Below, one piece after another: positions 497 to 41,559 of a stretch of DNA of 42,554 nucleotides. The notes beneath the pieces were generated by a model, which did not search any database, was not told the DNA's origin, and worked only from the letters and a program-made list of their open reading frames with translations. Both the position numbers and the translations under genes were made by a program. How positions within the stretch are numbered: position 1 is the first letter of the stretch; each line of letters opens with the position of its first letter. The stretch is from positions 1 through 42,554 of the IMG/VR virus record IMGVR_UViG_2802429237_000001; one strand, 5' to 3'. The stretch is from a virus. Taxonomy: Duplodnaviria; Heunggongvirae; Uroviricota; Caudoviricetes.

Positions 497-599
497 GCAA
501 GGCAACTAAGCCTGCATTAATGCCAACTTTTAGCGCACGGCTCTCTCCCAAGAGCCATTTCCCTGGACCGAATACAGGAATCGTATTCGGTCTCTTTTT
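497..599 (+). ncRNA. sdsR: SdsR (RyeB) small RNA; its terminator hairpin carries the prophage att core
   Basis: gcaaggcaactaagcctgcattaatgcc...ccgaatacaggaatcgtattcggtctcttttt matches my memory of the ~104-nt SdsR sequence; ends in hairpin ccgaatac/gtattcgg plus U-tract; context between yebY and pphA is the known sdsR/ryeA locus. Recollection-based, not searched. Confidence 0.6.
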
Positions 600-600
600 A
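574..600. repeat. attL core: 27-bp direct repeat acaggaatcgtattcggtctcttttta
   Basis: Exact copy of 41533..41559; lies next to the integrase gene; flanking sequence diverges on both sides. Confidence 0.75.
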
Positions 601-631
601 ATTGTATTTAAAATCAACTAGTTGCAAACGT

Positions 632-651
632 TTCCCCGAAATTCCCCGAAA
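632..651. promoter_or_regulatory. Tandem repeat ttccccgaaa x2; candidate integrase arm-type binding sites
   Basis: ttccccgaaattccccgaaatttactcgaatttc between attL core and int stop; a related motif attcccgaaaatttc...actcgaaaaaaa occurs near attR at 41386..41420. Confidence 0.3.
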
Positions 652-730
652 TTTACTCGAATTTCTGTATTCCGGTCTTTTTTGGTTATATCACAACCAA
701 AATATATTTAACAATCCATTTACGTAAAAA

Positions 731-1807
731 TCAGAGCAGTAAGTACGTTTTTTCTCTATCATCAAGATACAGTTTTGTTGTCTTCTCCGATGTGTGGCCA
801 AGTAGACGTTGAGCAAATTCTTCTCCACAGGTTTCTTTGTACAGTCGTCCGGCCAGACTTCTGATCTCGTGAAAAGTTGGCGGATTTTCACTGAACTGGA
901 TACCCGATAATTTTCTGGCTGCGACAAATTTTTTTGTCAGGCCGTCCGGGTGAATGCTGCCGTCCGGGCTGTTTTTTCTGATCCCTGCACTGATTAGATA
1001 ATCCCCCCGACTTAGCAGTCGACACCGATCAATCACTGCTCCCAGCCGTAAACCAGCGACCGGAAGGCTGAGTGACAGGGGGATAGCAATCATCATTCCT
1101 GTCTTAATTTGCTTGATGTGGAGACGATCATCATAAATATCACTGAATCGCATATTCGTTATGTCTTCGCGACGTTGTCCTGTTACAAGGGCTAAGTCCA
1201 TAGCTAATGGGAACCATGCCGGAAGTTGGTCTGCTGCCTCCCTGATGTAGTTGTATGTCTTTAGTTTCAGCCGTTCTCTTGTAACTACTATTTTCGGTGC
1301 TCTTGTTGGCGTTACTGGATTTTGAGATATACGTCCTTCAACAATGGCTTCGCGGAACATATCAGATAACACAGAACGCATTGATCCTGCCATCGTGTTT
1401 TTCCCTCCTTCAATCCACAAATCAAGAAACTCGGCAATATGGCGAGTGGTTATTTCTGTCAGTAAAATCCCTCCTAATTTTTCTTTTATTGTTTCCAGTT
1501 GATTTACCCTAATTTTATAAGTATTTCTGGACACTTTTCTCCTTATAAGAATCGTTTTGTAACGTTCAATCCAGTCTGCCATAGTAAATGAGTCGACCCC
1601 TTTAAGTTTTTCAATTAAGGCAGCAGGAGAGTAGTTTTTGTATATATAATGATTTGCTTCAATTGCCTGCGCGATTGCATCTCTTCTTGAAATTTTACCT
1701 AGTGTAAATTCTTCTTTCGTCAGAGGGTTGCGCCAGTAATATGCTTTGTCCCTCCTTCGATATGTTAAGTTCCTAGGCAAATTGGGATCGTATTTTTTCC
1801 GCTGCAT
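731..1807 (-). CDS. int: Tyrosine recombinase, lambda Int-family prophage integrase
   Basis: 358-aa ORF adjacent to attL; C-terminal tyrosine-recombinase-like region (HEIRSLAGRLY...LLGHTSEKTTKLYLDD); position and length match Rac IntR. Confidence 0.9.
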   Translation of the reverse strand: MQRKKYDPNLPRNLTYRRRDKAYYWRNPLTKEEFTLGKISRRDAIAQAIEANHYIYKNYSPAALIEKLKGVDSFTMADWIERYKTILIRRKVSRNTYKIRVNQLETIKEKLGGILLTEITTRHIAEFLDLWIEGGKNTMAGSMRSVLSDMFREAIVEGRISQNPVTPTRAPKIVVTRERLKLKTYNYIREAADQLPAWFPLAMDLALVTGQRREDITNMRFSDIYDDRLHIKQIKTGMMIAIPLSLSLPVAGLRLGAVIDRCRLLSRGDYLISAGIRKNSPDGSIHPDGLTKKFVAARKLSGIQFSENPPTFHEIRSLAGRLYKETCGEEFAQRLLGHTSEKTTKLYLDDREKTYLLL

Positions 1808-2160: not shown

Positions 2161-2349
2161 TCACGAGGACAGAAGTTTCTCGCAATTAAAATTTATCAGT
2201 TTTACTTTCTGCTCTCTGGAAACGCCTGCTTCTTTTTTCCCCGAGAGCATTTTTTCGCATTCCGATTTGGTTAACTTTGTTTTTGAGTACCTTGTCCAGT
2301 TAGTAGGAGTGCCACCTTCCTTTTCAATAGTGGCGGTAATTTTATACAT
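2161..2349 (-). CDS. Hypothetical small protein (Rac ydaC position)
   Basis: 62-aa ORF from ATG at 2349 with strong SD (tggaggtg) upstream; overlaps the last codons of lar. Confidence 0.5.
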   Translation of the reverse strand: MYKITATIEKEGGTPTNWTRYSKTKLTKSECEKMLSGKKEAGVSREQKVKLINFNCEKLLSS

Positions 2350-2551
2350 GAACACCTCCATTATTATTTCCAGTAGTTCGTTTATTCCATCTTTCGAGTG
2401 CTTCTTTTTCACTTCTACCATAGCCGGTTCGGGATTCGCATCCGTTACACTTCGCGCGGTAATATCCTGAAATGGCTTTCACCGTTACTGATGGACAACC
2501 ACAAAAAGGGCATGGTTTGACTTTTTCATACCGCATTGTCTTTTCTCTCAT
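2342..2551 (-). CDS. lar: Lar-family restriction alleviation protein (zinc ribbon)
   Basis: KPCPFCG...CNGCESRTG zinc-ribbon pattern typical of Lar/RalR; located upstream of recT as in Rac; start could instead be Met6 at 2536. Confidence 0.75.
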   Translation of the reverse strand: MREKTMRYEKVKPCPFCGCPSVTVKAISGYYRAKCNGCESRTGYGRSEKEALERWNKRTTGNNNGGVHV

Positions 2552-2599
2552 AAAATAAAATTTTGTGATGGCGGTGAGGCTACACCGCCAAAGTAAATA

Positions 2600-3703
2600 T
2601 CAGGAGCCGATATATTCTGGTTTCATATCTGTCAGTGTCGTTTTATACGCCTCATATAATTCACCCAGATGTGGCCGGGCAGCATTCAGCGTATTTTCCA
2701 GAGCAGTAAATTTTTGTTCTGCTTCTGGATCACCTGATGAAGGAAGGTCATTTATCATCTTCTCGATACTGGCAATAGCATTGAGACGGTGATGACGCCG
2801 AACCACTTTTCCTTTAAGCTCGGCAAAGAATTCGCCGATCTGGTTTTTCTGATCCTCTATCTCTTGGCGTAATGCAGTGGTTTCCTCAGTCGTGGCCGCG
2901 CTTTCGACACGCTGCCGGAATTCATCAATCCACGCTTCGTCAATACGCTGTTCGATGGCTTCTGTTCGCTGCTCGCTTACCTCGCTATAATTCTGTACCG
3001 GCACAGGATTGATGATTTTTTCCTGTGGCTCTTCCAGTTCGTCCGGGGTATACACGCCCAGGATGACGTCAGGACAATAAAGGCGAGCCCAGTATTTCAA
3101 CGCCAGATAGGCGAGCTGTTGTTTCGGGTTTGAGGTCCATAAAGGAGAATTACGCGTAATCACGCTGGAAAGAAACACCGGTTCTCCCCAGGTAATCTCA
3201 CTTTCACCGCGAAGAACTGCACCAACTCGAACTGAGAGACCATACTCATCTTCACTGGTCCAACATGGGATCGTTTCTTTTTTCTCATAGATTCCGCCTC
3301 CTTTGGCCGTTTTCTTAACGGTCTCCACTCGGGTGCGAGAGCATTTCTCCCAGTCTCCCTCGTACTTGTAATGGAAGCGGCCTACAATTGCACTTGAGCT
3401 AGAGATCACAGCGTTAACCAGTTGTGCTTCATAACCCAGAACTCCGTTTACCAGGTGTGTTTTCTGAGCCACAGCGTAGGGGTTCATGCCCCATTGCATG
3501 GCTTGCATGATGATTGCCATGCAGTCGGCAGGATTTCCGCGAAGGTGATCGGGAACTGTGACGGTGGCCTGTGCCATCAAGCCGGCTACTGCCTGAAGTT
3601 GCGTCAACGCCTGAACGTTAAAAATAGTGTTACTGGCAGAAATGGTATTTGGTGTCTGCTCTGTCGTGATGATATTGGTATTTTGCATGGTCAGGTTCTC
3701 CAT
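2600..3703 (-). CDS. recT: RecT-family single-strand annealing recombinase
   Basis: 367 aa; region GNPADCMAIIMQAMQWGMNPYAVAQKTHLVNGVLGYEAQL resembles RecT; start overlaps the recE stop by one base. Confidence 0.85.
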   Translation of the reverse strand: MENLTMQNTNIITTEQTPNTISASNTIFNVQALTQLQAVAGLMAQATVTVPDHLRGNPADCMAIIMQAMQWGMNPYAVAQKTHLVNGVLGYEAQLVNAVISSSSAIVGRFHYKYEGDWEKCSRTRVETVKKTAKGGGIYEKKETIPCWTSEDEYGLSVRVGAVLRGESEITWGEPVFLSSVITRNSPLWTSNPKQQLAYLALKYWARLYCPDVILGVYTPDELEEPQEKIINPVPVQNYSEVSEQRTEAIEQRIDEAWIDEFRQRVESAATTEETTALRQEIEDQKNQIGEFFAELKGKVVRRHHRLNAIASIEKMINDLPSSGDPEAEQKFTALENTLNAARPHLGELYEAYKTTLTDMKPEYIGS

Positions 3704-6700
3704 TAAGCCAGATGCAGTGCTTCAAGACGACGAAGATCAAAGTCGTTTAATTCGTCGGTGTAACTTTCGGTAATCGGTGCTGGCCAGTTGTTTGTCTCCA
3801 GGGCTTCGTTTATCTGGCGTAGCGTCCGGCGATATTCCTGTCGACCAAGTTCCAGGAGTTCCTGCGAGGCTTCCACGACTGCCACCCAGTGATAGCCAGC
3901 ATCTTTGTTGACGAAGATCCAGAAAAATTTGTCCAGGTTTGCCACATCGCAATACATTGCGGCGCTGAGGTGATAATCACGCTCAATAATTTCACGGTGC
4001 AGGCGATCTTTAAGTCGTTCCTGTCGCACATAACCGAGGCTGACTGACTTCACGTCAGCGCAAATGCTTTCGTATGGCAGCCGGATTTCGATATCAGGAC
4101 GGACCCTGATTTCCAGCCCGGTTTCTTCATCAAACCCGAAATAGCTGATTTCAGATTTGCGATCCGGGTGGTTGAGTAGCCTTGCTGCATCGGTATTGTT
4201 TTGCAGTGCCGCGTGAATATTTTTTGCCTGTTCATACATATCCGGACTGATAAACGTTTTCCCGGCATTTTCTTCTTGCTGGCGTTTTTGCCAGTCCTCC
4301 AGTGTCACCAGTTCCGGGCGAATTTTCCGTGCGATTTCGGTTAATTGCTCTTTTGTGCCACTGATGTTGTAAGGCAAAGATTTAGCACGTTCTTTTTTTG
4401 CCAGTTCTGGGTCTACAGTTTCAATTTGATCCAGAAGCTGCTCCCGTGCTCCACTGGTTTTCAACAGAGGAGGGAGGCTTGCGTTGTATTCTTTAATACA
4501 GGCTTTCATTGCTGATGCTGTGTGTTTTTCCCCCTCAGGAATACGCCGAAATTCCACCGGAAGCGAACCGTAAAGGATGCCTGTTTCTTCGGCCCCGGCA
4601 CTTACAGACAGTGGCTGTATAAGAGTGCTGTTGTAGCTTTCGATCCACTCTTTCATCTGCTCTGGTGTCATCAGTGCTGGCAGACTGGCATTGTGTTTTT
4701 TAATGATGGCGATCAGTTCGCTAGAAGTAGTAACCACATATTCAGGAACCGGTACCGGAATGGCATATTCATCAGCGAATTTATCCGTTTCCAGAACATA
4801 GCTGTGAATGATCCGCCCACGCAGCAGTGCATCACTTTCCTCACTCGGAATAGTTCCGGCAATGTGCCGTCCGTGGTAATACATCAGGCTGATACGAGCA
4901 TCCTTCAGCATTGTGCTGCTTATTCCATTGGCAGAGTGATAAACCTCGTTTGGGAGGTTTTCATAGCGGCCTGGTTCGAAATATGATGGCCACATGATTT
5001 CAGTTGCTACAGGAGCTGACGCTTCACCAGTTTCATCACTGCAATTGTGATGCGAATCGCTGCCAGCGTTCTCCTTGTGCAGAGGTTCAGTGCCTTCCAT
5101 TTCCTCCGGATCTTTTTCCAGAGATTCATCCAGATTTTCTTCATTAAAGGTTTCCTGATACGTTGCGTCGCCCATTACCGCACCACAGTCGGGGCAGCTA
5201 TCCCCACCAGTCTGACCGCAGGCATTGCAGACTTTTTTCGGTTCCTGTTGCACTACTGGCTCAGGTTGTTTCACATCCGGGCTAGTTTTTTCAGTTTCTG
5301 GCGTGTTTTGTTCCGTTTCTGGCTGGTTCTGGTTCACAGAATCGCGAGTCTGGATCCCCTTAACCCATTTCGGATCATTCGGGTCGCTAATCCCTTCAAC
5401 AAATTCTCCACGCGAGGCAGCCAGCAATTTGTCTGCATCGACAGGATTTTTGGGCGGAATGTTTTTCCGGGCTTCATGGAGTTCTGCCCGCAGTTTCTGA
5501 TATTTCGCATCAACAGGGTTTACCTGTGACTGAGCATCCAGCGGCTGCGTGTCCTGATGATGTTCAGTTGCGTCCGGTTCCATTGTTTCAGCCGTTGCCT
5601 GTTCATCTGCCATTGCGCAAGATGGTTGCGGTTTTTCTTCATCATTCGGTTTTTCTTCTTCTGTTACACGCTGCGGCATCGGAGCAGAGGAGCGACCGCA
5701 GGCAATATCCACGATTTCCGGATCAGGGTTGGCATGATCGGTTTCAGTCAGTACTTTGTTCAGATATTCAGTGACGTGTGCGGGGATAACCTCGATACCA
5801 ATTGGTGCTTCTTTCACGGCCGCAACCACGATGGCACGGGAATAATCCAGCCCACCAGGCATGGCGATGAATTTGTCGCGGAAAACAGAAAAGGGTGGTT
5901 TATTTTCAGCGATAATTTCCTCGACACGTTTAGCGTGTGCTGGATGAAGGTTATAAATGTCCACGTCCATTGAACGGGCCAGTACGCCAGTGGCTACGTC
6001 GCGCGCCAGCGACGTCAGATCGTGAACGAAACCTTCGCCGCGGTCGGTAAGAATGCCGCCACCGGCATTTGCGCCCGACGGGGTGCGATTGATTTCAGAT
6101 ACGCAATTTCCTTTTGCCCACTCTTTTATCAGTAAGCTCTGATCCAGGTAATCGGTTTTCATCCAGGTGGATATGAACTTGTTGTATTCAGCCGGACTGA
6201 TGCGGCGAGTTTCTGCGTGAGTGAATGCCTTTTCCACGGAGCGCGCCAGTCTTTCCAGATGGTGGTTTGTCAGTTTATCCAGCTCAGGATGTGAGCGCAC
6301 CGCTGTAAGCATGCTCTGGAGGTTATGCTCCTCCATATCCATCTCCAGGCGGATCACGTCCTGGCGTTGTTCCGGTGTGGCGTGATGTTTGTATTTCCCA
6401 TTGAACTCCTGACCAAAGAAGTAGAGGTGCAGGAAACGATGAGCAAGACTGAGAGTGGCGACGGATACTTCGCAATCCTGGCAATCCCCGTGAGCGTCTG
6501 CCCGTGTGTTTTCTTCCTGGCCTCCCGCCGGTTCTTCGGTTTCCGGTGCATCCTCCTGATGGTGAACGTCGTCTGGCGCTGCTCCCGGTTTTAGTTCCCA
6601 GGTCATGGAGTCTTTGCTGAGTTGATAGCGTTCACTCCAGGTAAAATCGATCTCACCTTCAGGGGGAAGGTCATTAACGACAGGAAAATTCGTGGCAACA

Positions 6701-6858
6701 GGTTTAAAATAGCTGCTCAGTTTTTTACCTGACTTAACGAGCAGGTAGTCCAGAGTGGTGCTGGTCGATTCAAAATCGTCGTTTGCCCACAGGACGACGT
6801 CAGGTTCACCGGATGATTTTTTCGCTTTCCGTAACAGGAAGAGTGGTTTTGTGCTCAT
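3703..6858 (-). CDS. recE: Exodeoxyribonuclease VIII (RecE)-like protein, extended form (1051 aa)
   Basis: Directly upstream of recT; C-terminal region with PD-(D/E)xK-like RecE nuclease segment ([21 protein letters not shown]...ICADVKSV); central acidic low-complexity linker and [16 protein letters not shown] zinc-ribbon-like motif. Confidence 0.75.
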
Positions 6859-6928
6859 TGTTTTTTAACCTCAACTCAGATTAAAATTACTGCGAGTGAT
6901 GAATAAATGTCCCAGGTTCTTCACTCAG

Positions 6929-6958
6929 GCCTGCACACTGTGCAGGCTTTCTTTTTTT
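6929..6958 (+). terminator. Intrinsic terminator on + strand inside the leftward early operon
   Basis: Perfect palindrome gcctgcacactgtgcaggc followed by tttcttttttt on the + strand. Confidence 0.4.
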
Positions 6959-6986
6959 CAGATTTCACCTTTTTATTTCATTGCAA

Positions 6987-7232
6987 TCAGATCTGCCAGA
7001 AATTCGGCTTTTTTTCTGCGGGCAGATTATTTCCGATGTAAACCAGGCACATTTTTGTGGCACCTTCAACAAGAGTTTTAAAGTTTCCTGATAGACCGTC
7101 GATATCAACCACAGTGAATGGGGTTTCTTTATTTTCTGTTTTAATTACGTAGCCAATATGCTTTCCTTCCAGGTAAACCTCGTGAACAATGTTATCAGTA
7201 GTTGCAACAGTGGCTTCATAATTGGTGTTCAT
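6987..7232 (-). CDS. Hypothetical early protein (Rac racC position)
   Basis: 81-aa ORF between recE and the ydaE-like gene on the same strand; no recognisable domain. Confidence 0.5.
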   Translation of the reverse strand: MNTNYEATVATTDNIVHEVYLEGKHIGYVIKTENKETPFTVVDIDGLSGNFKTLVEGATKMCLVYIGNNLPAEKKPNFWQI

Positions 7233-7306
7233 GTTTTTCTACTTAATTAAGGTTGAGCGAATCCCTGCCATTGCTGGCATAAATTCAGTTTCGAATAGTC
7301 AGTTAA

Positions 7307-7477
7307 TTAAAGTTCGTGTGCCATCTGGTCTTTTTCGGCACAATTTTTACTACAATATTTTTTCATTTCCGTCGTTGGGATAACTCCACGCATGAAATGA
7401 AGTGGTCTTTTAATACTTTTGCTTTCTTCAATTTCTTTATTGCAAAGGTGGTAAGCACATTTTATTTTCTTAGTCAT
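7307..7477 (-). CDS. ydaE: YdaE-like small zinc-binding protein
   Basis: 56-aa ORF not in the track (below 60 aa), translated by hand: [56 protein letters not shown]; C-x4-C...C-x3-C; start ATG overlaps the kilR stop (ATGA); same position and length as Rac ydaE. Confidence 0.6.
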   Translation of the reverse strand: MTKKIKCAYHLCNKEIEESKSIKRPLHFMRGVIPTTEMKKYCSKNCAEKDQMAHEL

Positions 7478-7698
7478 CACCATGACTCCGCCTTTACAGG
7501 TAAACCATCACGACCGAGGAAGACTTTAATCATGCAGTCAGTAATGCATGTTTTTGTGGTCAGGCTACGGATATAAAGTTTCCGCTTTTTAATATTATTT
7601 GCCGAGGCGATATATGTCCGACCTTCATGAAGAACATAATCGCCAGGGGTCACGCACTGACGTGGTATTTCATCAGTTCCGAAGTGATGTGCAATCAT
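7477..7698 (-). CDS. kilR: KilR-like cell-division inhibitor
   Basis: 73 aa from ATG at 7698 with SD ggaga 6 nt upstream; length and position match Rac KilR; sequence [15 protein letters not shown]... is consistent with my recollection. Confidence 0.6.
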
Positions 7699-7755
7699 AA
7701 TTATCTCCATTTTTACAAATGAACTTTGTTGATGCGGTGCCTGGTGCCTCCAGGT

Positions 7756-7782
7756 GACGTTAACCAGTTAACAATTAACGTC
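7756..7782. promoter_or_regulatory. Inverted repeat gacgttaa-N11-ttaacgtc in the kilR leader region
   Basis: 8-bp perfect arms containing HpaI-like gttaac motifs, 60-85 bp upstream of kilR; operator or 5'-UTR hairpin. Confidence 0.3.
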
Positions 7783-7864
7783 GGATAATCCACCCATAAC
7801 ACTGATGCTTTTAACTGTTCCGCGTGCGCTTAGCCGCATTCACCGCATCACAAAATTCACTTTA

Positions 7865-7927
7865 AAAAGGGCAGACATCAGTCGAACTTCAAGAAAAAAA
7901 CTGATGCCGCCAGGACTACACACAGTA
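7865..7927 (-). ncRNA. Candidate DicF-like small RNA with intrinsic terminator
   Basis: Minus-strand sequence ...tcctggcggcatcagtttttttcttgaagttcgactgatgtctgccctttttaaa: hairpin plus U-tract; resembles my recollection of DicF (tttggcggtatcagtttt...gactgctctgccgcccttttt) in the ggcggNatcagtttt and gactgNtNtctgcc segments. No convincing ORF in this gap. Boundaries approximate. Confidence 0.3.
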
Positions 7928-8104
7928 GTGTTGTTATTCACAACCGGAAGCGCACGGTCGAAGAAATTTAACGACAAGCCTTCTAAGGGAAAAACACCTC
8001 CTCCGTGCGCTTTCGTGTTGTGTGCCTGTCTTTTTACCACTTCAGGCTCGGTGGTCTCGGCTATACCCCTACAGCGAGAATATTGAATTAATCCAATAAA
8101 TTGA

Positions 8105-8257
8105 TTAGCTGGTATTTTTGGCAAGCCAGCGACGTGCGCCAGCTTCGGTTTTAAACGTTTTGCTTTTGGTATACGTCATCGCGGTGAACGTGCCGTCCTG
8201 GTTGGGGAACACGCCGTATACCAGAGATTCGTTGTTGCCAAGATCGATAGTATCCAT
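8105..8257 (-). CDS. YdfK/YnaE-like small protein (DUF1391-like)
   Basis: 50-aa ORF translated by hand: MDTIDLGNNESLVYGVFPNQDGTFTAMTYTKSKTFKTEAGARRWLAKNTS; SD aggggaaa upstream; resembles the Qin/Rac cold-shock-associated YdfK/YnaE as I recall them. Confidence 0.55.
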   Translation of the reverse strand: MDTIDLGNNESLVYGVFPNQDGTFTAMTYTKSKTFKTEAGARRWLAKNTS

Positions 8258-8511: not shown

Positions 8512-8973
8512 CTACTGGTTACGTTTCTTTAGTGCCAGCATGTTCTCGAAGGCTTCCTCGTAGAGCTTGTTTAGTCCACGTAGCTGGTTAAGGAGTTTGG
8601 CTTTTTCTGACGCAGGTAGAATCTCGAAGAGGTTAAGTAACTCTGCCTGTTCTTCATTGACCAGCCTCCATCCTTTGCCTGAAAAGCTATCATCATAAGT
8701 ATCTGATGATCTTACATAATTCATTAAGTCTTTAAGGTCTTCTCGAATGTCCTCTGGTTTTACCTTTAACAGAGCCGCAAATTTTAGCGCAGCGTCGGTA
8801 TTTACCGGTATCTTGCCGTTCAGATACTGGCTAACGGTGCCTTGAGATTCGAACCCCAACAGCTCAGCCGCCAGCTCTTGAGTCAGCTTCAGCTCTTTTT
8901 TTCTTGCATTCCATGCGGCTTTTAAATTCTTGCTCGCTTCTGGAGTTGCAATCACTTCGCGTGTTTTTTTCAT
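8512..8973 (-). CDS. racR: RacR-like HTH (XRE-family) prophage repressor, no peptidase domain
   Basis: 153 aa; HTH segment LTQELAAELLGFESQGTVSQYLNGK; divergent from the cro-like gene; RacR-like size and position; no S24 peptidase C-terminal domain. Confidence 0.8.
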   Translation of the reverse strand: MKKTREVIATPEASKNLKAAWNARKKELKLTQELAAELLGFESQGTVSQYLNGKIPVNTDAALKFAALLKVKPEDIREDLKDLMNYVRSSDTYDDSFSGKGWRLVNEEQAELLNLFEILPASEKAKLLNQLRGLNKLYEEAFENMLALKKRNQ

Positions 8974-9080
8974 ACATAGAGTTTATTTGTTTTACCAATA
9001 TTATCAAAGATAGTCTGACTGTTGATCTTTAAAATTAGTGGGGCTAATATTTGCTCGAGGCATAACGTAGAAGGTTGGCT
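8974..9080. promoter_or_regulatory. Divergent promoter/operator region of the immunity switch
   Basis: 107-bp AT-rich gap between divergently oriented racR and ydaS-like genes; partial dyad tcaaagat...atctttaa. Confidence 0.5.
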
Positions 9081-9356
9081 ATGAACTTAAGAGACTATTT
9101 AAAAGAGAAACATATCACCCAGTTACAGTTTGGGAAGCTAACGGGTTTATCTCAGGTGCATGTAAGTCGAGTGCTGGGGGGCTATGAAAGATTCAGCCCT
9201 GAAAAAGCATTACGTGTTGCTGAAGTAACGAATTTCGAGGTTACACCTCATGAACTCCGGCCTGATATCTACCCGAATCCGACCGATGGTTTACCTGTTG
9301 GGTGTAAGGCTAACACACAAAATGCACAGGAGTTGATTCATGAAAATCAGGCATGA
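9081..9356 (+). CDS. ydaS: Cro/YdaS-like HTH protein
   Basis: 91 aa from ATG at 9081 (track start 9075 is TTG); SD aagg; HTH QLQFGKLTGLSQVHVSRVLGG; divergent from racR as in Rac. Confidence 0.7.
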   Translation: MNLRDYLKEKHITQLQFGKLTGLSQVHVSRVLGGYERFSPEKALRVAEVTNFEVTPHELRPDIYPNPTDGLPVGCKANTQNAQELIHENQA

Positions 9357-9762
9357 GCACATCGAATCAGTGTTGTTAGCCCTAGCCGCTGAAAAAGGGC
9401 AGGCGTGGGTCGCTAACGCAATTACTGAAGAATATCTGCGCCAGGGGGGCGGCGAATTGCCCCTGGTACCAGGCAAGGACTGGAATAATCAGCAGAACAT
9501 CTATCACCGTTGGTTAAAAGGTGAAACGGAAGCGCAAAGGGAAAAAATTCAGAAACTGATCCCTGCAATTCTGGCAATCCTTCCGCGCGAGCTGCGTCAC
9601 CGACTCTGCATCTTCGATACCTTGGAACGCCGTGCATTACTGGCGGCGCAGGAAGCGTTGAGTACGGCAATTGATGCGCATGATGATGCAGTCCAGGCCG
9701 TTTACCAGAAAGCGCATTTCAGCGGCGGCGGGTCTTCCGACGATTCTGTCATTGTTCATTAA
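9340..9762 (+). CDS. ydaT: YdaT-like protein (toxic partner in the RacR-controlled module)
   Basis: 140 aa, the same length as Rac YdaT; follows the ydaS-like gene with 17-nt overlap; SD caggag. Confidence 0.65.
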   Translation: MKIRHEHIESVLLALAAEKGQAWVANAITEEYLRQGGGELPLVPGKDWNNQQNIYHRWLKGETEAQREKIQKLIPAILAILPRELRHRLCIFDTLERRALLAAQEALSTAIDAHDDAVQAVYQKAHFSGGGSSDDSVIVH

Positions 9763-9774
9763 GCAAAAGTTTCC

Positions 9775-10632
9775 ATGCTGTTTGTGCTTATTCTAAGCCA
9801 CCGGGCAGCATCATACGGGGCAATTATGGCCGCATTACCATACATGCAACTGTACATAGCTGATTACCTGGCTGACACCATGCATTTGTCAGCAGAGGAG
9901 CACGGTGCGTATTTGTTGCTGATGTTCAATTACTGGCAAACAGGAAAGCCAATACCCAAAAACAGGCTGGCAAAAATTGCCCGTCTGACTAACGAGCGAT
10001 GGGCTGATGTTGAACCATCCTTGCGGGAGTTTTTTTGCGATAACGGCGAGGAATGGGTGCATCTTCGGATTGAGGAAGATCTGGCATCAGTCAGGGAAAA
10101 ATTAACCAAAAAATCAGCCGCAGGAAAAGCATCTGTTCAGGCCAGAAGAAGCAGAAAGAAAGCAGATGTTCAAACAAAACAAGAGAGAAATTTAACAGGT
10201 GTTCAAACAGATGTTGAAGTGGTGTTTGAACATGATGTCAACACAAAGGCAACTAATAAAGATACAGATAAAGATCTAAAAACAGATCCCCCCCTAAATC
10301 CCCCCCGGGGGAATCGAGGTGTCAAAAAGTTTGACCCTCTGGATATTGCTTTGCCGAACTGGATTTCTGTCTCGCTTTGGCGTGAGTGGGTTGAATTTCG
10401 CCAGGCATTGCGTAAACCGATTCGAACGGAGCAGGGCGCTAACGGGGCGATACGGGAGCTGGAAAAATTCCGCCAGCAGGGTTTTTCACCTGAGCAGGTG
10501 ATTCGACACAGCATCGCCAATGAATACCAGGGCTTGTTCGCGCCGAAAGGTGTTCGGCCTGAGACGTTGCTCCGACAGGTTAACACCGTCTCGTTGCCGG
10601 ACAGTGCGATCCCGCCAGGCTTCAGGGGGTAA
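9775..10632 (+). CDS. ydaU: YdaU-like replication protein (DUF1376-like)
   Basis: 285 aa, matching Rac YdaU length; N-terminal segment YMQLYIADYLADTMHLSAEEHGAYLLL; alternative start at ATG 9826 has a better SD. Confidence 0.7.
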   Translation: MLFVLILSHRAASYGAIMAALPYMQLYIADYLADTMHLSAEEHGAYLLLMFNYWQTGKPIPKNRLAKIARLTNERWADVEPSLREFFCDNGEEWVHLRIEEDLASVREKLTKKSAAGKASVQARRSRKKADVQTKQERNLTGVQTDVEVVFEHDVNTKATNKDTDKDLKTDPPLNPPRGNRGVKKFDPLDIALPNWISVSLWREWVEFRQALRKPIRTEQGANGAIRELEKFRQQGFSPEQVIRHSIANEYQGLFAPKGVRPETLLRQVNTVSLPDSAIPPGFRG

Positions 10633-10638
10633 GAGACC

Positions 10639-11385
10639 ATGAAAAATATTGCGACAGGCGGCGTTCTGGAGCGTATCCGCAGACTGACCCCACCACATGT
10701 AACTGCCCCATTCAGAACGGTTACGGAGTGGCGTGAGTGGCAACTTGCTGAAGGCCAGAAACGTTGCGAGGAGATCAACCGCCTGAATCGTCAGTTGCGG
10801 GTGGAAAAAATTCTGAATCGCTCTGGCATCCAGCCGTTGCACCGTAAATGCTCGTTTGCGAATTACCAGGTGCAGAACGACGGCCAGCGATACGCGTTAA
10901 GCCAGGCGAAATCCATCGCCGATGAACTGATGACCGGGTGTACAAATTTTGCGTTCAGCGGAAAACCTGGTACCGGGAAGAATCACTTAGCGGCAGCTAT
11001 CGGGAATCGCCTGCTGAAAGACGGTCAGACAGTGATTGTGGTTACCGTGGCTGATGTTATGAGCGCCCTGCACGCCAGCTATGACGACGGGCAGTCAGGC
11101 GAAAAATTTTTGCGGGAGCTGTGCGAAGTGGATCTGCTGGTTCTTGATGAAATTGGCATTCAGCGCGAGACGAAAAACGAGCAGGTGGTGCTGCACCAGA
11201 TTGTTGATCGCCGGACAGCGTCGATGCGCAGCGTGGGGATGCTGACAAACCTGAACTATGAGGCCATGAAAACATTGCTCGGCGAGCGGATTATGGATCG
11301 CATGACCATGAACGGCGGACGCTGGGTGAATTTTAACTGGGAGAGCTGGCGTCCGAATGTTGTCCAGCCAGGAATTGCGAAGTAA
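10639..11385 (+). CDS. ydaV: DnaC/IstB-like AAA+ helicase loader
   Basis: 248 aa; Walker [11 protein letters not shown] and Walker B LLVLDEIG; follows the replication initiator gene; matches Rac YdaV length. Confidence 0.85.
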
Positions 11386-11407
11386 TTTTTACCGGGAGGA
11401 AATTTTA

Positions 11408-12169
11408 ATGGAGACCGTTTTTGACGCACTGAAAGCAATGGGAAAAGCCACATCCATAGAACTTGCTGCGCGACTTGATATCAGTCGTGAAGAAGTGCTG
11501 AACGAACTATGGGAACTGAAAAAAGCTGGCTTCGTTGATAAAACCGCGTACACCTGGCGCGTGGCTGATAACAACGTTCGGCAGGAACAGCCAGCACTGG
11601 CAGAACAGCCGGAAGAAACCACCACAGCAACAGTAGCGAAAATCTCAGAGTGCGATTTAACCGCGACGATTGAACAACGCGGACCACAAACGGCTGATGA
11701 GCTGGCTACATTGTTTGGTACCACATCACGCAAAGTGGCTTCAACGCTGGCAATGGCAATCAGCAAAGGTCGTCTGATTCGCGTAAATCAGGGCGGTAAA
11801 TTTCGTTACTGCATACCGGGCGATAATTTACCAGCAGAGTCGAAAGCAGCATCGGTAGCGGAAACTGATGGTAAGGCCTTTCCTCAGCCCGCAGGTGTTG
11901 CGTTACCAGTACAGGAGGCTGCAACACAGGAAGAAATTAAAACAGAAACTGTGGCGGATATTGTGCAGTCGCTGCCATCGTTTACTGCAACGCGATCTGA
12001 TGATTTGATTTTGCCATCGCTGCATTTGGCAAACCGCGAACTGCGTCGGGCGAAAAATCATGTCCAGAAGTGGGAGCGTGTCTGCGCCGCGCTGCGTGAG
12101 TTGAACAAGCACAGGGATATTGTACGACAGATTACTGATTCTTCCCGCCATGTTGCATCGGAAAAGTGA
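11408..12169 (+). CDS. Hypothetical protein, N-terminal winged-helix-like region
   Basis: 253 aa from ATG at 11408 with SD gggagg; the track ORF starts earlier at 11357 but overlaps ydaV. Confidence 0.55.
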
Positions 12170-12184
12170 TTGCCGGAGGCGCTT

Positions 12185-12646
12185 ATGGCAAAAGTATTTA
12201 CACAAGAAGAGCGGGAAAAAATTAAGGGGAAGGTTGTTGAGCTCGTGCGCCAGAGTGGGCGCGAGACGTTACGACAACTGGAAGCTAAGACAGGTGCGAC
12301 AAGATATCTGATGAGTGTTCTTGCCAGAGAGCTGGTTGCCAGTGGCGATTTATACAACTCCGGCTACGGGTTATTTCCGTCTGAACAGGCACGTAAGGAC
12401 TGGATAAAGGCCCGCAAAAAGATGTCGAAAGCAGCAGTGAAAAAAAAGAGCGACCCGGACCTGGTTTATTCATTACCAGACGGAGAAATACGCCGCTATG
12501 ACAGGCGTCTGAACATAATCTGTCGCGAGTGTCGGAGGAGCGAAGCTATGCAGCGCGTACTGGCGTTTTACCAGAATGGTTTTCGAGAGATATTCGGTGA
12601 ACAGGTTATGCATGAGGGAAATCATGGCACTCAGGTCAGTGTGTAG
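12185..12646 (+). CDS. Hypothetical basic protein
   Basis: 153 aa from ATG at 12185 with SD ggagg (track start 12170 is TTG); conserved-looking C-terminus with CRECRR motif. Confidence 0.5.
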   Translation: MAKVFTQEEREKIKGKVVELVRQSGRETLRQLEAKTGATRYLMSVLARELVASGDLYNSGYGLFPSEQARKDWIKARKKMSKAAVKKKSDPDLVYSLPDGEIRRYDRRLNIICRECRRSEAMQRVLAFYQNGFREIFGEQVMHEGNHGTQVSV

Positions 12647-12882
12647 GCACGTTGACGGTAGAAAGCATATGGGGGATCGATCGTTCTAGTTATGCTGTAA
12701 GAGCGAAAGCGCAGGCGCTGGGTATCAACAGGATGTTACGGGGTGACTTTCACTTGAGCTAGTGGGATCAATTTTACTGTTGGGGTGGGGGGACGTTAAG
12801 TTGCTGACAATTTCGAAATGTTTTTGATAAAGGCAGCGATTTTCTTTGATGGAGGGGCTACAAAAAATTTTTCATGTGAAAT

Positions 12883-14049
12883 ATGATATCTGCGATGTTA
12901 TCAAATGTGAAAATATTTATGAATCTGCAAAAAAGAAGAAAAGTTCAAAAACTAAACTATCGCGGGCAAGTTTCGAAACTGAAGAGGGGGATATTTAATT
13001 CTCTGAAAAGCACGGATTGGGAAGGAGTAGAAAATGCGAAGAGAAAACTGGAATATTACAAACGCACTCGTAAGCTACGAGTCTCGAAGAAAAAGTTGAC
13101 AACAAGTAATAAAAGGGTGGTTTTTTCTGCTCCGATATCTATTAATTATTACAACGATCGTGATTTTGAAATCATGAATAAATTTTTAAATAATTTACGC
13201 GATTGCGTGTTGAAGAATAATCGTGTTTATATAGATTTTTCTTCAACTAAATATATAAGTGCAGCTGCTATGTTATCTTTTCTCGCTGAAGTTGATGTGC
13301 TTATTAAGAAAAGTGAATTTGGAGTAAATGCCATAGGGTTTTCACATCCGAAAGACAAGAAAATTGAAAGCATTTTGAATCAAGTCGGTTTCTATGATCT
13401 ATTAAGGAAACCTAAAAGAGAAACTGAAAGTTATGATGATGTGACTTTTTGGAAATATACATCAGGTTCTTGTTCTGAGCCTCTTTTAGCAAAAGAAATG
13501 ATGGTGGAAATAAAAAAAGAGTTAGAAAGAAAATCATCAAAAAAATTATACCGTGGCTTTACTGAGGCCATGTCTAATTCTGTCGAGCATGCTTATGTTG
13601 ATGATTTAATGCATACGGAAGATGACGAAACAGCTAAGTGGTGGACCTTTGCTGGCATACATGACAAAAATCTTACAGTGGTAATATGTGATAAAGGAGT
13701 GGGAATACCTTCAACATTGCCTAAAACACAAGGTGTAAGTGTGCTAATGAACATCTTCAAAAAACTTAGAGTTCCATTAGCAAATGTAAAGGATTCTACT
13801 TATATAAAGGCTTCCACGTTACTTCAGGAAACGAGGACTGGGGAGCTGAACCGAGGTAAAGGCTTGAATGATATCAAATCGGTAATCGATTCAATAGGTG
13901 ATGGTTTTATGGGGATTTTTTCATCAAAAGGGCGCTATATTTACAAAGGGAAAACTGGCATTATTAACGAAGTGCTTAGAGATTACAAAAGCTCTGTTAA
14001 TGGTACTATAATTGAATGGACAATTCCTTGTGAGGTGGAAACTGAGTAG
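12883..14049 (+). CDS. GHKL-family ATPase/serine-kinase-like protein (RsbW-like C-terminal domain) with Lys/Arg-rich N-terminus
   Basis: 388 aa; Bergerat-fold motifs: N-box EAMSNSVEHAY, G1 box ICDKGVGIP, G2 box NRGKGLNDIKS; N-terminal 75 residues highly basic; AT-rich coding sequence. Confidence 0.7.
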   Translation: MISAMLSNVKIFMNLQKRRKVQKLNYRGQVSKLKRGIFNSLKSTDWEGVENAKRKLEYYKRTRKLRVSKKKLTTSNKRVVFSAPISINYYNDRDFEIMNKFLNNLRDCVLKNNRVYIDFSSTKYISAAAMLSFLAEVDVLIKKSEFGVNAIGFSHPKDKKIESILNQVGFYDLLRKPKRETESYDDVTFWKYTSGSCSEPLLAKEMMVEIKKELERKSSKKLYRGFTEAMSNSVEHAYVDDLMHTEDDETAKWWTFAGIHDKNLTVVICDKGVGIPSTLPKTQGVSVLMNIFKKLRVPLANVKDSTYIKASTLLQETRTGELNRGKGLNDIKSVIDSIGDGFMGIFSSKGRYIYKGKTGIINEVLRDYKSSVNGTIIEWTIPCEVETE

Positions 14050-14050
14050 T

Positions 14051-14365
14051 ATGAAAATTATAAAAGTAGCCAGTCGTTATCCTTGCCCAGGACCTCGTTT
14101 TAAAAGATTGGGGCCCGCTTCTGGTGAGGAGTTTCGTGAGTGGGTAGAAAGAGAGCTTAAACATTCACCAGATCTAACAATAGACCTTGATGGAACGGAG
14201 GGGTATGGTTCTTCTTTCTTGGAGGAGTGCTTTGGCGGATTGATTAGGCGTGGCGTGAGTCCTGATAAGGTTAAAGGGATTAAATTTATCTCAGAAGAAG
14301 AACCTGAGTTAATTGACGAGATAAATGAATATATCGAGGACGCTATAAAGGTATCTCATGGCTAA
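14051..14365 (+). CDS. STAS-like domain protein (DUF4325-type)
   Basis: 104 aa; starts 2 nt after the upstream stop with SD gaggtgg; core LTIDLDGTEGYGSSFLEECFGGLIRRG resembles DUF4325/STAS-like proteins as I recall them. Confidence 0.65.
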   Translation: MKIIKVASRYPCPGPRFKRLGPASGEEFREWVERELKHSPDLTIDLDGTEGYGSSFLEECFGGLIRRGVSPDKVKGIKFISEEEPELIDEINEYIEDAIKVSHG

Positions 14366-14876
14366 TTCAAGTATCCAGGTCTGTACTTGGAGTGCAGACT
14401 TTTGGTGTAAGTTTTTTTCTTTGTTTAAAGATGAAAATCAGTATGTAACTTGGTTTTTAGTTTTAGTTGGATGGGGGATTACGGCATATATTGCTTATCT
14501 CCAAACCACAAAAAGTAGAGGAGATGCTATTAAAGATGCTCATAATGAATGGATCGGTGAGTTTAGACAAAAACTGGAGTTGCTTGAGGATTTTGCCTTA
14601 GAGTTCTGGGCTGAAGATAATAATAAAGAACCTACACTGGCGTTAGCAAAAATGAGTAGGGAGGTTAAGAGTTTAACTACTATCGCTAAAGAAATTGAAA
14701 GGGCCGGTGGTGAAAAATATAAGGCAAAATTGTTTAAGGAATTACGCCAAGCCATGACATATGATAGTGATGTTCACAACCGACCTCTAAGACCTGATTG
14801 TATGCAAATTGTTAGGATTAGAGAAACATGTGCAAGTTTGAGAAGTGCGTACGGGCGCAAAAGCTTGACTGAATAA
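14358..14876 (+). CDS. Single-pass membrane protein with coiled-coil-like C-terminal domain
   Basis: 172 aa; start overlaps the upstream stop (ATGGCTAA); one hydrophobic helix YVTWFLVLVGWGITAYIAYL (about residues 30-50); SD aaagg. Confidence 0.6.
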   Translation: MANSSIQVCTWSADFWCKFFSLFKDENQYVTWFLVLVGWGITAYIAYLQTTKSRGDAIKDAHNEWIGEFRQKLELLEDFALEFWAEDNNKEPTLALAKMSREVKSLTTIAKEIERAGGEKYKAKLFKELRQAMTYDSDVHNRPLRPDCMQIVRIRETCASLRSAYGRKSLTE

Positions 14877-15823: not shown

Positions 15824-15882
15824 GTTATAATTCGTAAGCCAGCCTGAACAACTGGCAACCTACAGCGCCATTGGAGATAGCA

Positions 15883-17423: not shown

Positions 17424-17436
17424 GAGGAGGGGGGGA

Positions 17437-38948: not shown

Positions 38949-39625
38949 GCAAATACACCGAACTAATCACAAACTACCACGCCACCAAACCTAAATTTCT
39001 TGCACATGTTGATCTGATGACCCGGCCGCTTATTGATGTTGCGGCTGCCACCAGAGGGCTGATTACTGCATTTGATATTGACTCTGCGGTTGGTGTGCAA
39101 CTTGACATTCTGGGATTGTGGATCGGACGTAGCCGTGTTGTCAACCAGCCTATCTCAGGTGTCTATTTCAGCTGGGATACCGACGGGCTTGGATATGATC
39201 AGGGGGTATGGCAGGGGCCATATGATCCTGATTCCGGATATATGTATCTCAGCGATGAAACTTATCGTGTCATTCTTAAAGCGAAGATTGCGATTAATAA
39301 CTGGGACGGACGGAATGATTCGCTTCCGGCAATTCTTGACGCTGCAACAGCAGGAACCGGACTGCGAATGCAGATAGTCGATAACCAGGACATGACGATA
39401 TCGGTCTGGGTCTTTCCTGATACTGATATTTCAGATGTATCGCGTGAGTTAATTGCTGCAATTAAACAGGGATATCTCACAGTAAAAGCCGCCGGGGTGT
39501 GGGCGGGTGGCATTGAAACACCTTCGGTGGAAACCCCATCGGAAGGCTCAAAATTTTTTGGTTTTGATATGGATAACGAATTCATCAGTGGTTTTGATGT
39601 AGGAGCATGGGGAGTATTACTCTGA
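38945..39625 (+). CDS. Baseplate/tail protein (gpI/Mu gp48-like)
   Basis: 226 aa; overlaps the J-like stop; precedes the tail fiber gene. Confidence 0.55.
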   Translation: MSKYTELITNYHATKPKFLAHVDLMTRPLIDVAAATRGLITAFDIDSAVGVQLDILGLWIGRSRVVNQPISGVYFSWDTDGLGYDQGVWQGPYDPDSGYMYLSDETYRVILKAKIAINNWDGRNDSLPAILDAATAGTGLRMQIVDNQDMTISVWVFPDTDISDVSRELIAAIKQGYLTVKAAGVWAGGIETPSVETPSEGSKFFGFDMDNEFISGFDVGAWGVLL

Positions 39626-40521
39626 TGGCGAAAAATGACTTTAAAGCGTTTGCAACTGATCGAAATGCCAATGTTATGCCGCAGAAGGAATGGGAAGCAT
39701 TGCCTGCGCTTTTATCCGGATTTACAGCAGGGAAAGCATCCAGTGCGCAAGTCAATAAGGTTATTCGGCAGGCCAGCTTTATAGCAGCAGCACTTGCACA
39801 GTACACAGCAAACAAAAGCGGACTGGATGTATTGGATGATGGCGACCTGAATGGGTTCATTACCAAAATGTCTTCTGCGTTCGGTAAGGATTATCAGGCG
39901 CTTGATGCCACGTTGACGGCTCTGGCAGGACTGGCGACTGGGGCAAATAAGCTACCGTATTTCACTGGCACAGATAAGGCTGCGCAGACCGACCTCACTA
40001 AGGTAGGCCGTGATATTATCGGCAAAAATACTATTGCTGACATTCTCGCATACCTTGGTTTGGGAGAAGGCTCTGCATTGCCTGTTGGCGTACCTGTTCC
40101 GTGGCCTTCGGCCACACCGCCGACAGGCTGGTTGAAATGCAATGGCGCTGCCTTTGATAAGGTGAAATATCCTAAGCTTGCCAAGGTATACACTACCGGA
40201 AAATTACCTGATTTACGTGGCGAATTCATTCGTGGCTGGGATGACGGACGTGGTGTGGATAGTGGGCGAACGTTATTGAGTGCTCAGAGCGATACGCTGC
40301 AAAATATTACAGGTAGCTTTTTGGATATGACTGCGGGGCCAAATAATAGTGCTGTCGGCGTATTTACATCTTCAGTATTGACACCAAATCTCGCATCACT
40401 TGCGACAGGTGGTGCATATAAACAGGCGAATTATTATTTTGATGCATCACGTGTTGCCAGAACATCAGCGGAAACACGTGCACGCAATATTGCATTTAAC
40501 TATATAGTGAGGGCTGCATAA
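39607..40521 (+). CDS. Tail fiber protein
   Basis: 304 aa; conserved fiber motif PVGVPVPWPSATPPTGWLKCNGAAFDKVKYPKLAKVY...LPDLRGEFIRGW; start may be ATG at 39625. Confidence 0.8.
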   Translation: MGSITLMAKNDFKAFATDRNANVMPQKEWEALPALLSGFTAGKASSAQVNKVIRQASFIAAALAQYTANKSGLDVLDDGDLNGFITKMSSAFGKDYQALDATLTALAGLATGANKLPYFTGTDKAAQTDLTKVGRDIIGKNTIADILAYLGLGEGSALPVGVPVPWPSATPPTGWLKCNGAAFDKVKYPKLAKVYTTGKLPDLRGEFIRGWDDGRGVDSGRTLLSAQSDTLQNITGSFLDMTAGPNNSAVGVFTSSVLTPNLASLATGGAYKQANYYFDASRVARTSAETRARNIAFNYIVRAA

Positions 40522-41123
40522 TGGATAAAGCTGTCTTAAATAGTGAGCTTATTGCCACGAAGGCAGGGAATATTACTGTCTATAATTATGATGGTGAAAC
40601 ACGAGAATATATTTCCGCATCAACTGAATATCTTGCCGTTGGTGTCGGCATTCCGGAATGTTCCTGTTTAGATGCTCCTGGCGCATACAAAGCTGGTTAT
40701 GCAATCTGTCGTTCTGTGAATTTAAATTCGTGGGAATATGTGCCAGACCATCGCGGCGAAATCGTCTATAGCACCGAAACAGGAGAATCGAAAGAAATCA
40801 CAGATCCGGGTGATTATCCTGAAAATACAACCACTATGGCCCCGTTAACGCCATACGATAAATGGGATGGTGAGAAATGGGTGACAGACACCGAGGCACA
40901 ACACAGTGCCGCAGTAGAAGCGGCAGAAGCACAGCGCCAGTTACTGATTGATGCTGCTATGGCTTCCATTAGTCTGATTCAGTTGAAATTACAGGCCGGA
41001 CGTAAACTGACGCAGGTAGAAACAACCCGATTAAACGCTGTGCTGGATTACATTGACGCGGTGACAGCAACAGATACCAGCACCGCGCCAGATGTCATCT
41101 GGCCTGAACTGCCAGAGGCGTAG
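40521..41123 (+). CDS. Tail fiber assembly protein (Tfa-like)
   Basis: 200 aa; C-terminal segment LQLKLQAGRKLTQVETTRLNAVLDYIDAVTATDTSTAPDVIWPELPEA typical of Tfa chaperones. Confidence 0.8.
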   Translation: MDKAVLNSELIATKAGNITVYNYDGETREYISASTEYLAVGVGIPECSCLDAPGAYKAGYAICRSVNLNSWEYVPDHRGEIVYSTETGESKEITDPGDYPENTTTMAPLTPYDKWDGEKWVTDTEAQHSAAVEAAEAQRQLLIDAAMASISLIQLKLQAGRKLTQVETTRLNAVLDYIDAVTATDTSTAPDVIWPELPEA

Positions 41124-41228
41124 ACTGGGTGGCTAATTGCATCAGGAGTTCATCGCCAGAAGGCGGCGATCATCTATGATGTTGGCGTATCGACTTTGTA
41201 TAAGAAGTTTCCGCTCGGAGATGAATGA
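41124..41228 (+). pseudogene. 3' remnant of a Pin/Gin-family DNA invertase (HTH end)
   Basis: In-frame directly after the tfa TAG stop: TGWLIASGVHRQKAAIIYDVGVSTLYKKFPLGDE, resembling the C-terminal HTH of Hin/Gin/Pin invertases (..IYDV.LSTLYKK..); no catalytic domain remains. Confidence 0.55.
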
Positions 41229-41532
41229 AACCGTAGCACGTCGTATGCAAGAACGTGCCACGGCTGGCTGATGGACGTTCGATAGCGCGAGTTTGAATGA
41301 AAATCAGCCGGAGGTGATTTTACATAATTGCTACGGAATTATTCAATACAGGGATTGCTTGTGTATGCATGGATTGACCTGAAATATTCCCGAAAATTTC
41401 TCTAAAAAACTCGAAAAAAATGGTAACTAATTGAATGCATTAATATGTAATGGTACGTGTCAGGGATTAAAAGATGAGTATAAATTTATTTAATGCATTG
41501 ATTCTAAAAGCTTTTGTTGCTTATTGACGAAA

Positions 41533-41559
41533 ACAGGAATCGTATTCGGTCTCTTTTTA
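41533..41559. repeat. attR core: 27-bp direct repeat acaggaatcgtattcggtctcttttta
   Basis: Exact copy of 574..600; preceded by an AT-rich non-coding arm. Confidence 0.75.

Follow-up and report, generated by a model that had tools for sequence, protein, structure and literature searches.

What becomes of a locus that is transcribed in both directions when a phage integrates into it and restores only one of its two RNAs? The question is raised by a stretch of DNA of 42,554 nucleotides (IMG/VR virus record IMGVR_UViG_2802429237_000001; referred to here, at its full length, as the window), in which a 41-kb prophage is integrated at the terminator of sdsR (also called ryeB), a gene for a small RNA (sRNA) whose antisense partner is RyeA (also SraC). 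SdsR is a toxic sigma-S sRNA. The prophage is bounded by an exact 27-bp direct repeat, ACAGGAATCGTATTCGGTCTCTTTTTA, of which the window holds two copies only, both on the plus strand and with identity breaking off at both borders of the copies; the prophage length between the repeats is 40,959 bp. There is no third copy with two or fewer mismatches in the window, and 100 dinucleotide-preserving shuffles gave no match. A sequence-only reading of this DNA had pointed to the repeat, had placed the element between yebY and pphA, and had taken the left copy for the 3′ stem-loop and U-tract of SdsR/RyeB; the window scan and the shuffles confirm the first point, the annotation of homologous E. coli loci agrees with the second, and for the third the Rfam structure line and a terminator scan concur that the left copy comprises the loop, the 3′ stem arm and the U-tract of the SdsR terminator.

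A scan of the window with Rfam at gathering thresholds returned four matches, SdsR_RyeB, SraC_RyeA, RalA and sok, the first two of which lie at the left junction and extend over the full length of their models; a covariance-model match to SdsR was a check that the same reading had proposed, and the result bears the reading out. SdsR_RyeB (RF00111) matches at 500–599 (+) with 116.4 bits against a cutoff of 38 (model positions 1–100 of 100), and SraC_RyeA (RF00101) at 603–459 (−) with 176.1 bits against a cutoff of 37 (model positions 1–145 of 145). The sdsR gene differs from that of E. coli at one base, the terminator scan places its hairpin at 565–593, and an alignment of the window with E. 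coli (alignment A1) shows no variation across the ~35 nt of promoter region that precede sdsR +1; annotation of the flanking genes shows that sdsR retains its conserved yebY-pphA setting.

The flanks of the prophage are merely 80–87% identical to E. coli, and the host is therefore not E. coli. A scan for empty junctions, conducted with one genome per species, returned eight loci; in Escherichia whittamii Sa2BVA5 (L006) the left flank (1–600) is 99.0% and the right flank (41533–42554) 99.4% identical, and the two flank alignments overlap by exactly 27 nt, which are the core. This is an empty attB in the same species, and on the identity of the flanks we assign the host to E. whittamii. Of 5426 complete E. 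coli genomes, 5191 give an unbroken alignment with the artificially joined flanks, so that the empty-site allele proposed as a check on the integration is found both in E. whittamii and in E. coli, with the flanks meeting at a single copy of the core. An attL-type junction with a related integrase is present in 228 of the 5426, and a matching attR-type junction likewise in 228; thus about 4% of complete E. coli genomes are occupied at the sdsR site.

The integrase had been expected just inside attL, and its open reading frame (ORF; 731–1807, minus strand) indeed lies 131 nt inside it. The integrase matches phrog_7244 at 5e-129 and the adjacent excisionase matches phrog_629 at 1e-23; the catalytic domain of the integrase is recognised as PF00589 Phage_integrase (62 bits against a cutoff of 27.1), its N-terminal domain as the lambda-type PF09003 Arm-DNA-bind_1 (29.7 bits against 22), and its central domain by a Pfam Phage_int_M match. 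Judged by this domain composition, the element is a prophage inserted by a lambda-type tyrosine integrase. A synthetic attP, built as right arm, core and left arm and aligned to phage records, matches PP818812.1 (vB_Apl-pPE4, pPE4 below) in a single alignment that covers 95% of the synthetic sequence at 90% identity; a second attP turned up in an IMG/VR contig (L014) when exact patterns were scanned for, and in Salmonella phage ZC-S1_prp, whose record is circular, the 27-bp core recurs beside a 77%-identical int-proximal arm. Three phage or viral records, all of them from related phages, thus hold an attP in which the core links the two arms. The proposition that the 27-bp repeat is a product of chance or a duplication artefact rather than the two ends of a mobile element is refuted on three counts, which leave it a vanishingly small probability: no match is expected by chance, the flanks meet precisely at the core in the empty site of the same species, and attP is present in free-phage records. 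Two further candidates were rejected, namely integration into a tRNA gene, because the window has no tRNA gene, and a non-phage island, on the strength of the empty site and the content of phage modules.

Two positions of the core, 12 and 21, are variable, and comparison of the alleles in host, phage and lysogens locates the crossover. E. coli attB has a G at position 12 and a C at position 21, and the attP of pPE4 and that of the IMG/VR contig have an A and a T; in the related prophage of E. coli PEC178 (NZ_CM168017.1) attL has A12 and T21, and attR has G12 and C21. A second attL, in E. coli 2013C-3342, and a second attR, in AH19B041, show the same pattern; the other prophage end in 2013C-3342 appears to be rearranged, and PEC178 and AH19B041 were taken as the reference lysogens. 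Since attL of PEC178 has the phage alleles and attR the host alleles, attL from core position 12 rightwards is phage DNA, and these single-nucleotide polymorphisms (SNPs) therefore place strand exchange in the E. coli lysogens within ACAGGAATCGT, the first 11 bp of the core. It follows that in these E. coli relatives phage DNA makes up the 3′ half of the SdsR terminator, and the rebuilding of the sRNA 3′ end by phage DNA, a central claim of the sequence-only reading, is seen directly in the core SNPs of PEC178. The pattern amounts to a clean natural mapping of a crossover, and it lends support to the idea that sRNA terminator hairpins are recognised by integrases in the same manner as tRNA stem-loops.

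The 7-nt terminator loop, AGGAATC, falls inside ACAGGAATCGT between inverted stem arms, and the left arm in attP is an imperfect copy (GACGAAAAC versus GACCGAATAC). From the exchange to the left of position 12 and the inverted arms that flank the loop, it seems that the crossover overlap is probably the loop itself and that the stem arms are the core-type sites of the integrase (Int). The E. whittamii host already has A12 and C21, and consequently the two core copies in the window are identical and SdsR is unchanged; the phage-derived half of the terminator brings two base changes into SdsR in E. coli and none in E. whittamii. The idea that phage-derived SNPs alter the stability of the hairpin was dropped, since all three alleles have a predicted energy of −15.8 kcal/mol and differ in the U-tract alone.

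Both attachment arms contain repeats of a motif, CYCGAAW, that was picked after inspection of the sequence and that we regard as marking candidate arm-type Int sites. Five of these motifs, all on the plus strand, lie within 150 bp of the core, compared with 27 on both strands of the whole window; they are kept in the attP of pPE4, of the IMG/VR contig and of ZC-S1_prp amid diverged surroundings, and the tandem triplet of the P′ arm is retained in the 77%-identical ZC-S1_prp attP, as a triple CYCGAAAT repeat. In the free-phage records the P arm runs contiguously with the core and the P′ arm. The arrangement resembles that of lambda Int and attP, with which it shares an arm-binding N-terminal domain on a tyrosine integrase and int and xis beside attP; the two P-arm and three tandem P′-arm candidate sites would parallel P1-P2 and P′1-P′3, and the proposed imperfect inverted core sites around a short overlap would be a further likeness. 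It differs in target, in core sequence and in the motif of the candidate arm sites. The P′ arm also contains a promoter-like site (628–601, minus strand; a 9-of-12 match) directed into the core. Sigma-70 and terminator scans round both junctions gave counts no higher than in shuffled sequence, and this site is therefore a lead only; the sigma-70 scan also missed the RyeA promoter, which has the look of an extended −10 promoter. Between 731 and 601 the terminator scan showed no intrinsic terminator for minus-strand transcription, and antisense read-through from int, which the sequence-only reading had proposed, is therefore plausible.

We note two other features of the arms. In the P′ arm, 666–685 (+) reads GTATTCCGGTCTTTTTTGG and resembles closely, in degenerate form, the sdsR terminator's 3′ half (GTATTCGGTCTCTTTTTA). 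This element recurs in the attP of pPE4, of the IMG/VR contig and of the Salmonella phage, and folds as no more than a weak hairpin; it could be a back-up terminator, for sdsR or for late read-through, or a secondary Int site. At the P arm, a non-coding stretch of about 100 nt at 41217–41323 (+) is 75–83% identical to unannotated sequence of lambdoid phages with other integration sites (HK97, HK106, phi80 and Stx phages), where its counterparts lie near attP or downstream of side tail-fibre genes.

These observations suggest how the prophage would have come to occupy the locus. The lambda-type integrase would recombine phage attP with a bacterial attB that is the sdsR terminator hairpin, exchanging strands in the 7-nt loop with the stem arms acting as inverted core-type sites, a geometry like that known for integrases that target tRNA anticodon loops. 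An intact sdsR is restored at attL, since attP brings with it a copy of the loop, the 3′ stem arm and the U-tract; in a bidirectional locus one RNA cannot be restored in this way without its antisense partner being broken. The RyeA of E. coli, an RNA of about 270 nt, has its start at sdsR +141, on the side of pphA (PMC6610125). By alignment A1 this start maps to about 41609 (−) in the window, with the block upstream conserved, and what reads as a TG-extended −10 element, on our own assignment of the hexamer, lies at about 41617–41625. The homologue of the RyeA promoter and start (about 41609–41650) is thus beyond attR and 41 kb from the SdsR-antisense body, and the separation of RyeA from its target that had been claimed holds by homology to the E. 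coli start. In the lysogen, ryeA is by this mapping not one contiguous transcription unit, its promoter and 5′ end being cut from its body: the sigma-70 promoter and the first ~50 nt of the convergent gene would stay at attR and be expected to give a transcript that leaves the host sequence after about 50 nt and continues through the core into the phage right arm, and the SdsR-complementary body (600 to about 370, minus strand) would be left at attL with no promoter of its own. The 3′ extent of this body is taken from the 3′ ends of E. coli RyeA at +261 to +270 (PMC6610125) together with alignment A1.

The Rfam match to SraC_RyeA gives no sign of this disruption. The model spans RyeA from about +36 onward only, and so it still returns a full-length score at attL despite the lost promoter; an annotation pipeline would therefore wrongly call SraC/RyeA intact in any lysogen at the sdsR site.

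The neighbouring gene pphA is cut off as well, being now 41 kb from the sdsR promoter, a point on which the sequence-only reading is silent. Transcription of ryeA interferes with sdsR in E. coli, pphA is made there mainly through read-through from the sdsR promoter, and mutation of the ryeA promoter raises both SdsR and pphA (PMC6610125). For the lysogen we would accordingly expect less RyeA, more SdsR (relieved of both antisense pairing and transcriptional interference), and a loss of sdsR-promoter read-through into pphA; as with the exact overlap, the arm-type sites and inducibility, we infer these RNA-level effects. A stronger version is that lysogeny constitutes a regulatory switch, in which SdsR is de-repressed, pphA is cut off and RyeA is replaced by a phage-controlled antisense transcript, arising through int read-through or at the promoter-like site at 628–601; this proposal is tentative and its odds, in our estimate, are somewhat short of even. 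We know of no report of an effect of lysogeny on pphA. If the proposal is true, SdsR dosage and PphA expression would track the state of the prophage in about 4% of E. coli and in such other Escherichia and Salmonella strains as harbour these phages. The lysogens (228 of 5426 E. coli genomes, E. whittamii and Salmonella) may be regarded as natural promoter-swap mutants of the SdsR/RyeA/pphA circuit.

The site could instead be a neutral safe harbour, in which sdsR is rebuilt and neither the split of ryeA nor the separation of pphA has a meaningful effect on the host. The exact rebuilding of SdsR in E. whittamii, the equal predicted hairpin energy of host and phage alleles, and the proportion of complete E. 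coli genomes that carry such prophages (about 4%) are all in keeping with this, and the promoter-like site and read-through from int could stand in for RyeA transcription. We nevertheless consider it unlikely: the links between RyeA and SdsR and between sdsR and pphA are both physically broken in the window, the E. coli ryeA promoter mutation and the main role of the sdsR promoter in driving pphA, cited above, tell against it, and lysogeny of Salmonella by PhiW104 at the same site lowers ryeA and raises ryeB, according to the review PMC7380047.

It is also conceivable that the prophage is locked in, having integrated at sdsR but being now defective, unable to excise or to form particles, with its att repeats as relics. 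The Pin-type DNA invertase has been reduced to its last 33 codons, the translation of which (GWLIASGVHRQKAAIIYDVGVSTLYKKFPLGDE, followed by the stop codon) matches the C-terminus of PEC178 pinE, and about 1.3 kb present in PEC178 is missing, including the invertible tail-fibre segment; the PEC178 prophage has an intact pinE and an inverted, alternative fibre segment, and the phage in the window is therefore without its host-range switch. Some modules have also been replaced relative to PEC178. Against this, loss of a fibre-switch module is not disabling, the two core copies are identical across 27 bp, int and xis are both complete and match their families strongly, and the structural, lysis and replication modules tested all stand as intact ORFs of the length to be expected; a locked-in, defective state is in our judgement distinctly improbable.

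We therefore favor the explanation that a temperate phage has integrated site-specifically in the sdsR terminator of E. whittamii, with ryeA split as a result, and place its probability at roughly 0.88. Several points weigh against it in whole or in part. The attP evidence comes from related phages only and not from the phage of the window itself; attL of the window has C21, and the two closest attP sequences have T21, so that a C-type attP, such as is present in ZC-S1_prp, must be assumed. Antisense RNA, arising from int read-through or from the site at 628–601, could persist, in which case SdsR would not be fully freed, and the regulation of pphA is known from E. coli K-12 only (PMC6610125). 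The loss of the Pin invertase and the invertible fibre segment indicates at least some decay, and it is for the E. whittamii lysogen itself that inducibility and the RNA effects are deduced.

The site is a recognised one. An insertion hot spot at ryeB/sdsR has been published (Balbontin et al. 2008, J Bacteriol 190:4075, as cited in PMC3333887), ryeB is listed among the known phage-targeted sRNAs (Bobay et al. 2013, PMC3603311), and prophages such as Cfr111.52.RyeB are already named after it. In the review PMC7380047 ryeB-targeting is defined by an att site within the last ~23 bp of ryeB and internal to ryeA, and by this criterion the prophage described here, with a core that is the last 27 bp of sdsR, belongs to the class; a Salmonella phage that can stand as proxy for PhiW104, ZC-S1_prp, has the core in common with it and a 77%-identical int region. 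The same review, summarising Balbontin 2008, describes integration of PhiW104 of Salmonella enterica DT104 in ryeB, and the two systems have in common the target (the last 23 to 27 bp of ryeB/sdsR, at an internal site of ryeA) and the outcome, a restored ryeB alongside a ryeA whose 5′ part has been exchanged; the identity block is 23 bp in the one and 27 bp in the other, and the hosts are Salmonella and E. whittamii respectively, with the window phage being a Rac-like/SEN34-like mosaic. Among the E. coli prophages at the site, that of PEC178 has the same integrase type, att core and yebY-sdsR and pphA flanks, and 72% of the window aligns with it at 85–98% identity and in the same gene order; it differs in the immunity region, the cargo (12138–15078), the terminase and some baseplate genes. 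Integrases that target tRNA and tmRNA genes and ryeE (PMC3603311) likewise use the 3′ part of a structured RNA gene and supply its 3′ end from the phage, with a likely crossover in a 7-nt loop flanked by a symmetric stem, but the target here is the terminator hairpin of an Hfq-type sRNA and not a tRNA loop.

In terms of gene content, the element shares recE, recT, ralR/RalA, kil and replication genes like ydaS-W with Rac of E. coli K-12 (about 92% to Rac-SA53), and differs from it in having another integrase target and a complete contractile-tail late region. Rac itself is defective and occupies a different chromosomal site. What is new in the window is the host species and the mosaic phage, and what the comparisons add is the placement of the crossover from SNPs and the point concerning pphA; the relevance of these is mainly to annotation and to sRNA biology, and none of them would surprise a specialist. 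A variation on occupancy of the site is provided by E. coli 2013C-3342 (L012/L013), in which the prophage at the sdsR site has a late region of the lambda-like, long-tailed kind and, in place of pphA, its far end adjoins nleL, espN and espK (type III effectors) and potB; this points to recombination among prophages and to a chromosomal rearrangement.

Table 1. Features of the window, with coordinates numbered from its first nucleotide.
Feature	Position	Strand	Basis and remarks
yebY, left-flank host gene	1–342	+	ORF; annotation of homologous E. coli loci; flank 99% identical to E. whittamii L006
RyeA/SraC body	370–600	−	SdsR-antisense part and 3′ tail to bidirectional yebY terminator; without own promoter
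sdsR (ryeB) sRNA gene, complete	497–600	+	Rfam; last 27 nt are the attL core
attL core	574–600	+	Left 27-bp repeat copy; proposed 7-bp overlap AGGAATC at 576–582 (terminator loop)
P′ arm	601–730		Candidate arm-type Int sites CYCGAAW at 635, 645 and 656, in tandem
Integrase and excisionase	731–2060	−	Integrase 731–1807; excisionase 1773–2060
Rac-like early-left operon	2161–8124	−	PHROG matches; about 92% nucleotide identity to Rac-SA53
ralR toxin	2161–2421	−	With RalA antitoxin sRNA, 2165–2343 (+), Rfam 216.7 bits
recT	2600–3703	−	Early-left operon
recE	3703–6858	−	Early-left operon
kil	7477–7710	−	Early-left operon
Immunity and replication region	8512–12646		Includes DUF1627 and DUF977 proteins
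Repressor	8512–8973	−	
Cro-like	9075–9356		
CII-like/YdaT	9340–9762		
Primosomal O-like	9775–10632		
DnaC-like loader	10639–11385		
Low-GC cargo, three genes	12883–14876	+	35–38% GC; segment without counterpart in related E. coli prophage
hok/sok-type type I toxin-antitoxin locus	15106–15429	+	Rfam sok, 96.4 bits at 15106–15279
NinB-like, HNH/DUF1364, Q-like antiterminator, then lysis genes	15871–19681	+	
Holin	18466–18825	+	
Endolysin	18829–19305	+	
Rz spanin	19289–19681	+	
Contractile-tailed late region	20626–41123	+	PHROG matches
Pin-type DNA invertase remnant	41121–41226	+	Last 33 codons left
P arm	41227–41532		Candidate arm-type sites CYCGAAW at 41389 and 41410
attR core	41533–41559	+	Right 27-bp repeat copy
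RyeA promoter and first ~50 nt	41560–41650	−	Homology to mapped E. coli start; alignment A1
pphA (PP1-like phosphatase), right-flank host gene	41703–42362	+	Pfam Metallophos; E. coli homologues annotated pphA

The modules for lysogeny, replication, lysis, head and tail are all present in the prophage as intact ORFs (Table 1). The late region encodes the small and large terminase subunits, portal, head morphogenesis protein, protease/scaffold and major capsid protein, followed by tail genes for sheath, tube, tape measure, baseplate, tail fibre and fibre assembly, and it is 97% identical to Escherichia phage vB_EcoM-611R5 and 82% identical to Salmonella phage SEN34. By these matches the phage is a mosaic of a Rac-like lambdoid early region and a SEN34-like contractile-tailed late region.

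The three cargo genes encode a GHKL/HATPase-like ‘ATP-binding protein’ of about 376 residues, whose distant homologues carry PF02518 and PF13581, a 117-residue DUF4325 STAS-like protein, and a 172-residue ORF without a family match. Searches of PADLOC, NCBIfam and PDB with these genes returned nothing, and there was one distant match among 50,697 phage records; the cargo resembles a moron-borne kinase/STAS pair of the partner-switching type. Two moron-like ORFs lie in reverse orientation inside the rightward operons, a DUF2441 protein (phrog_5663) at 17627–18175 (−) and a 153-residue ORF at 20148–20609 (−), for the latter of which Pfam, PHROGs, PADLOC and NCBIfam gave no match. The prophage also bears two type I toxin-antitoxin loci, ralR/RalA and the hok/sok-type locus, and at the position of the latter a related locus (L015) is annotated as a Hok/Gef family protein.

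A final observation concerns PP818812.1 (L011), which is entered as ‘Actinobacillus phage vB_Apl-pPE4’ with Actinobacillus pleuropneumoniae as its host. This record is about 92% identical to the Rac-like early region of the window and carries an sdsR-type attP and integrase; on these similarities the host label looks doubtful, and the sequence may be that of an Escherichia phage or a contaminant.

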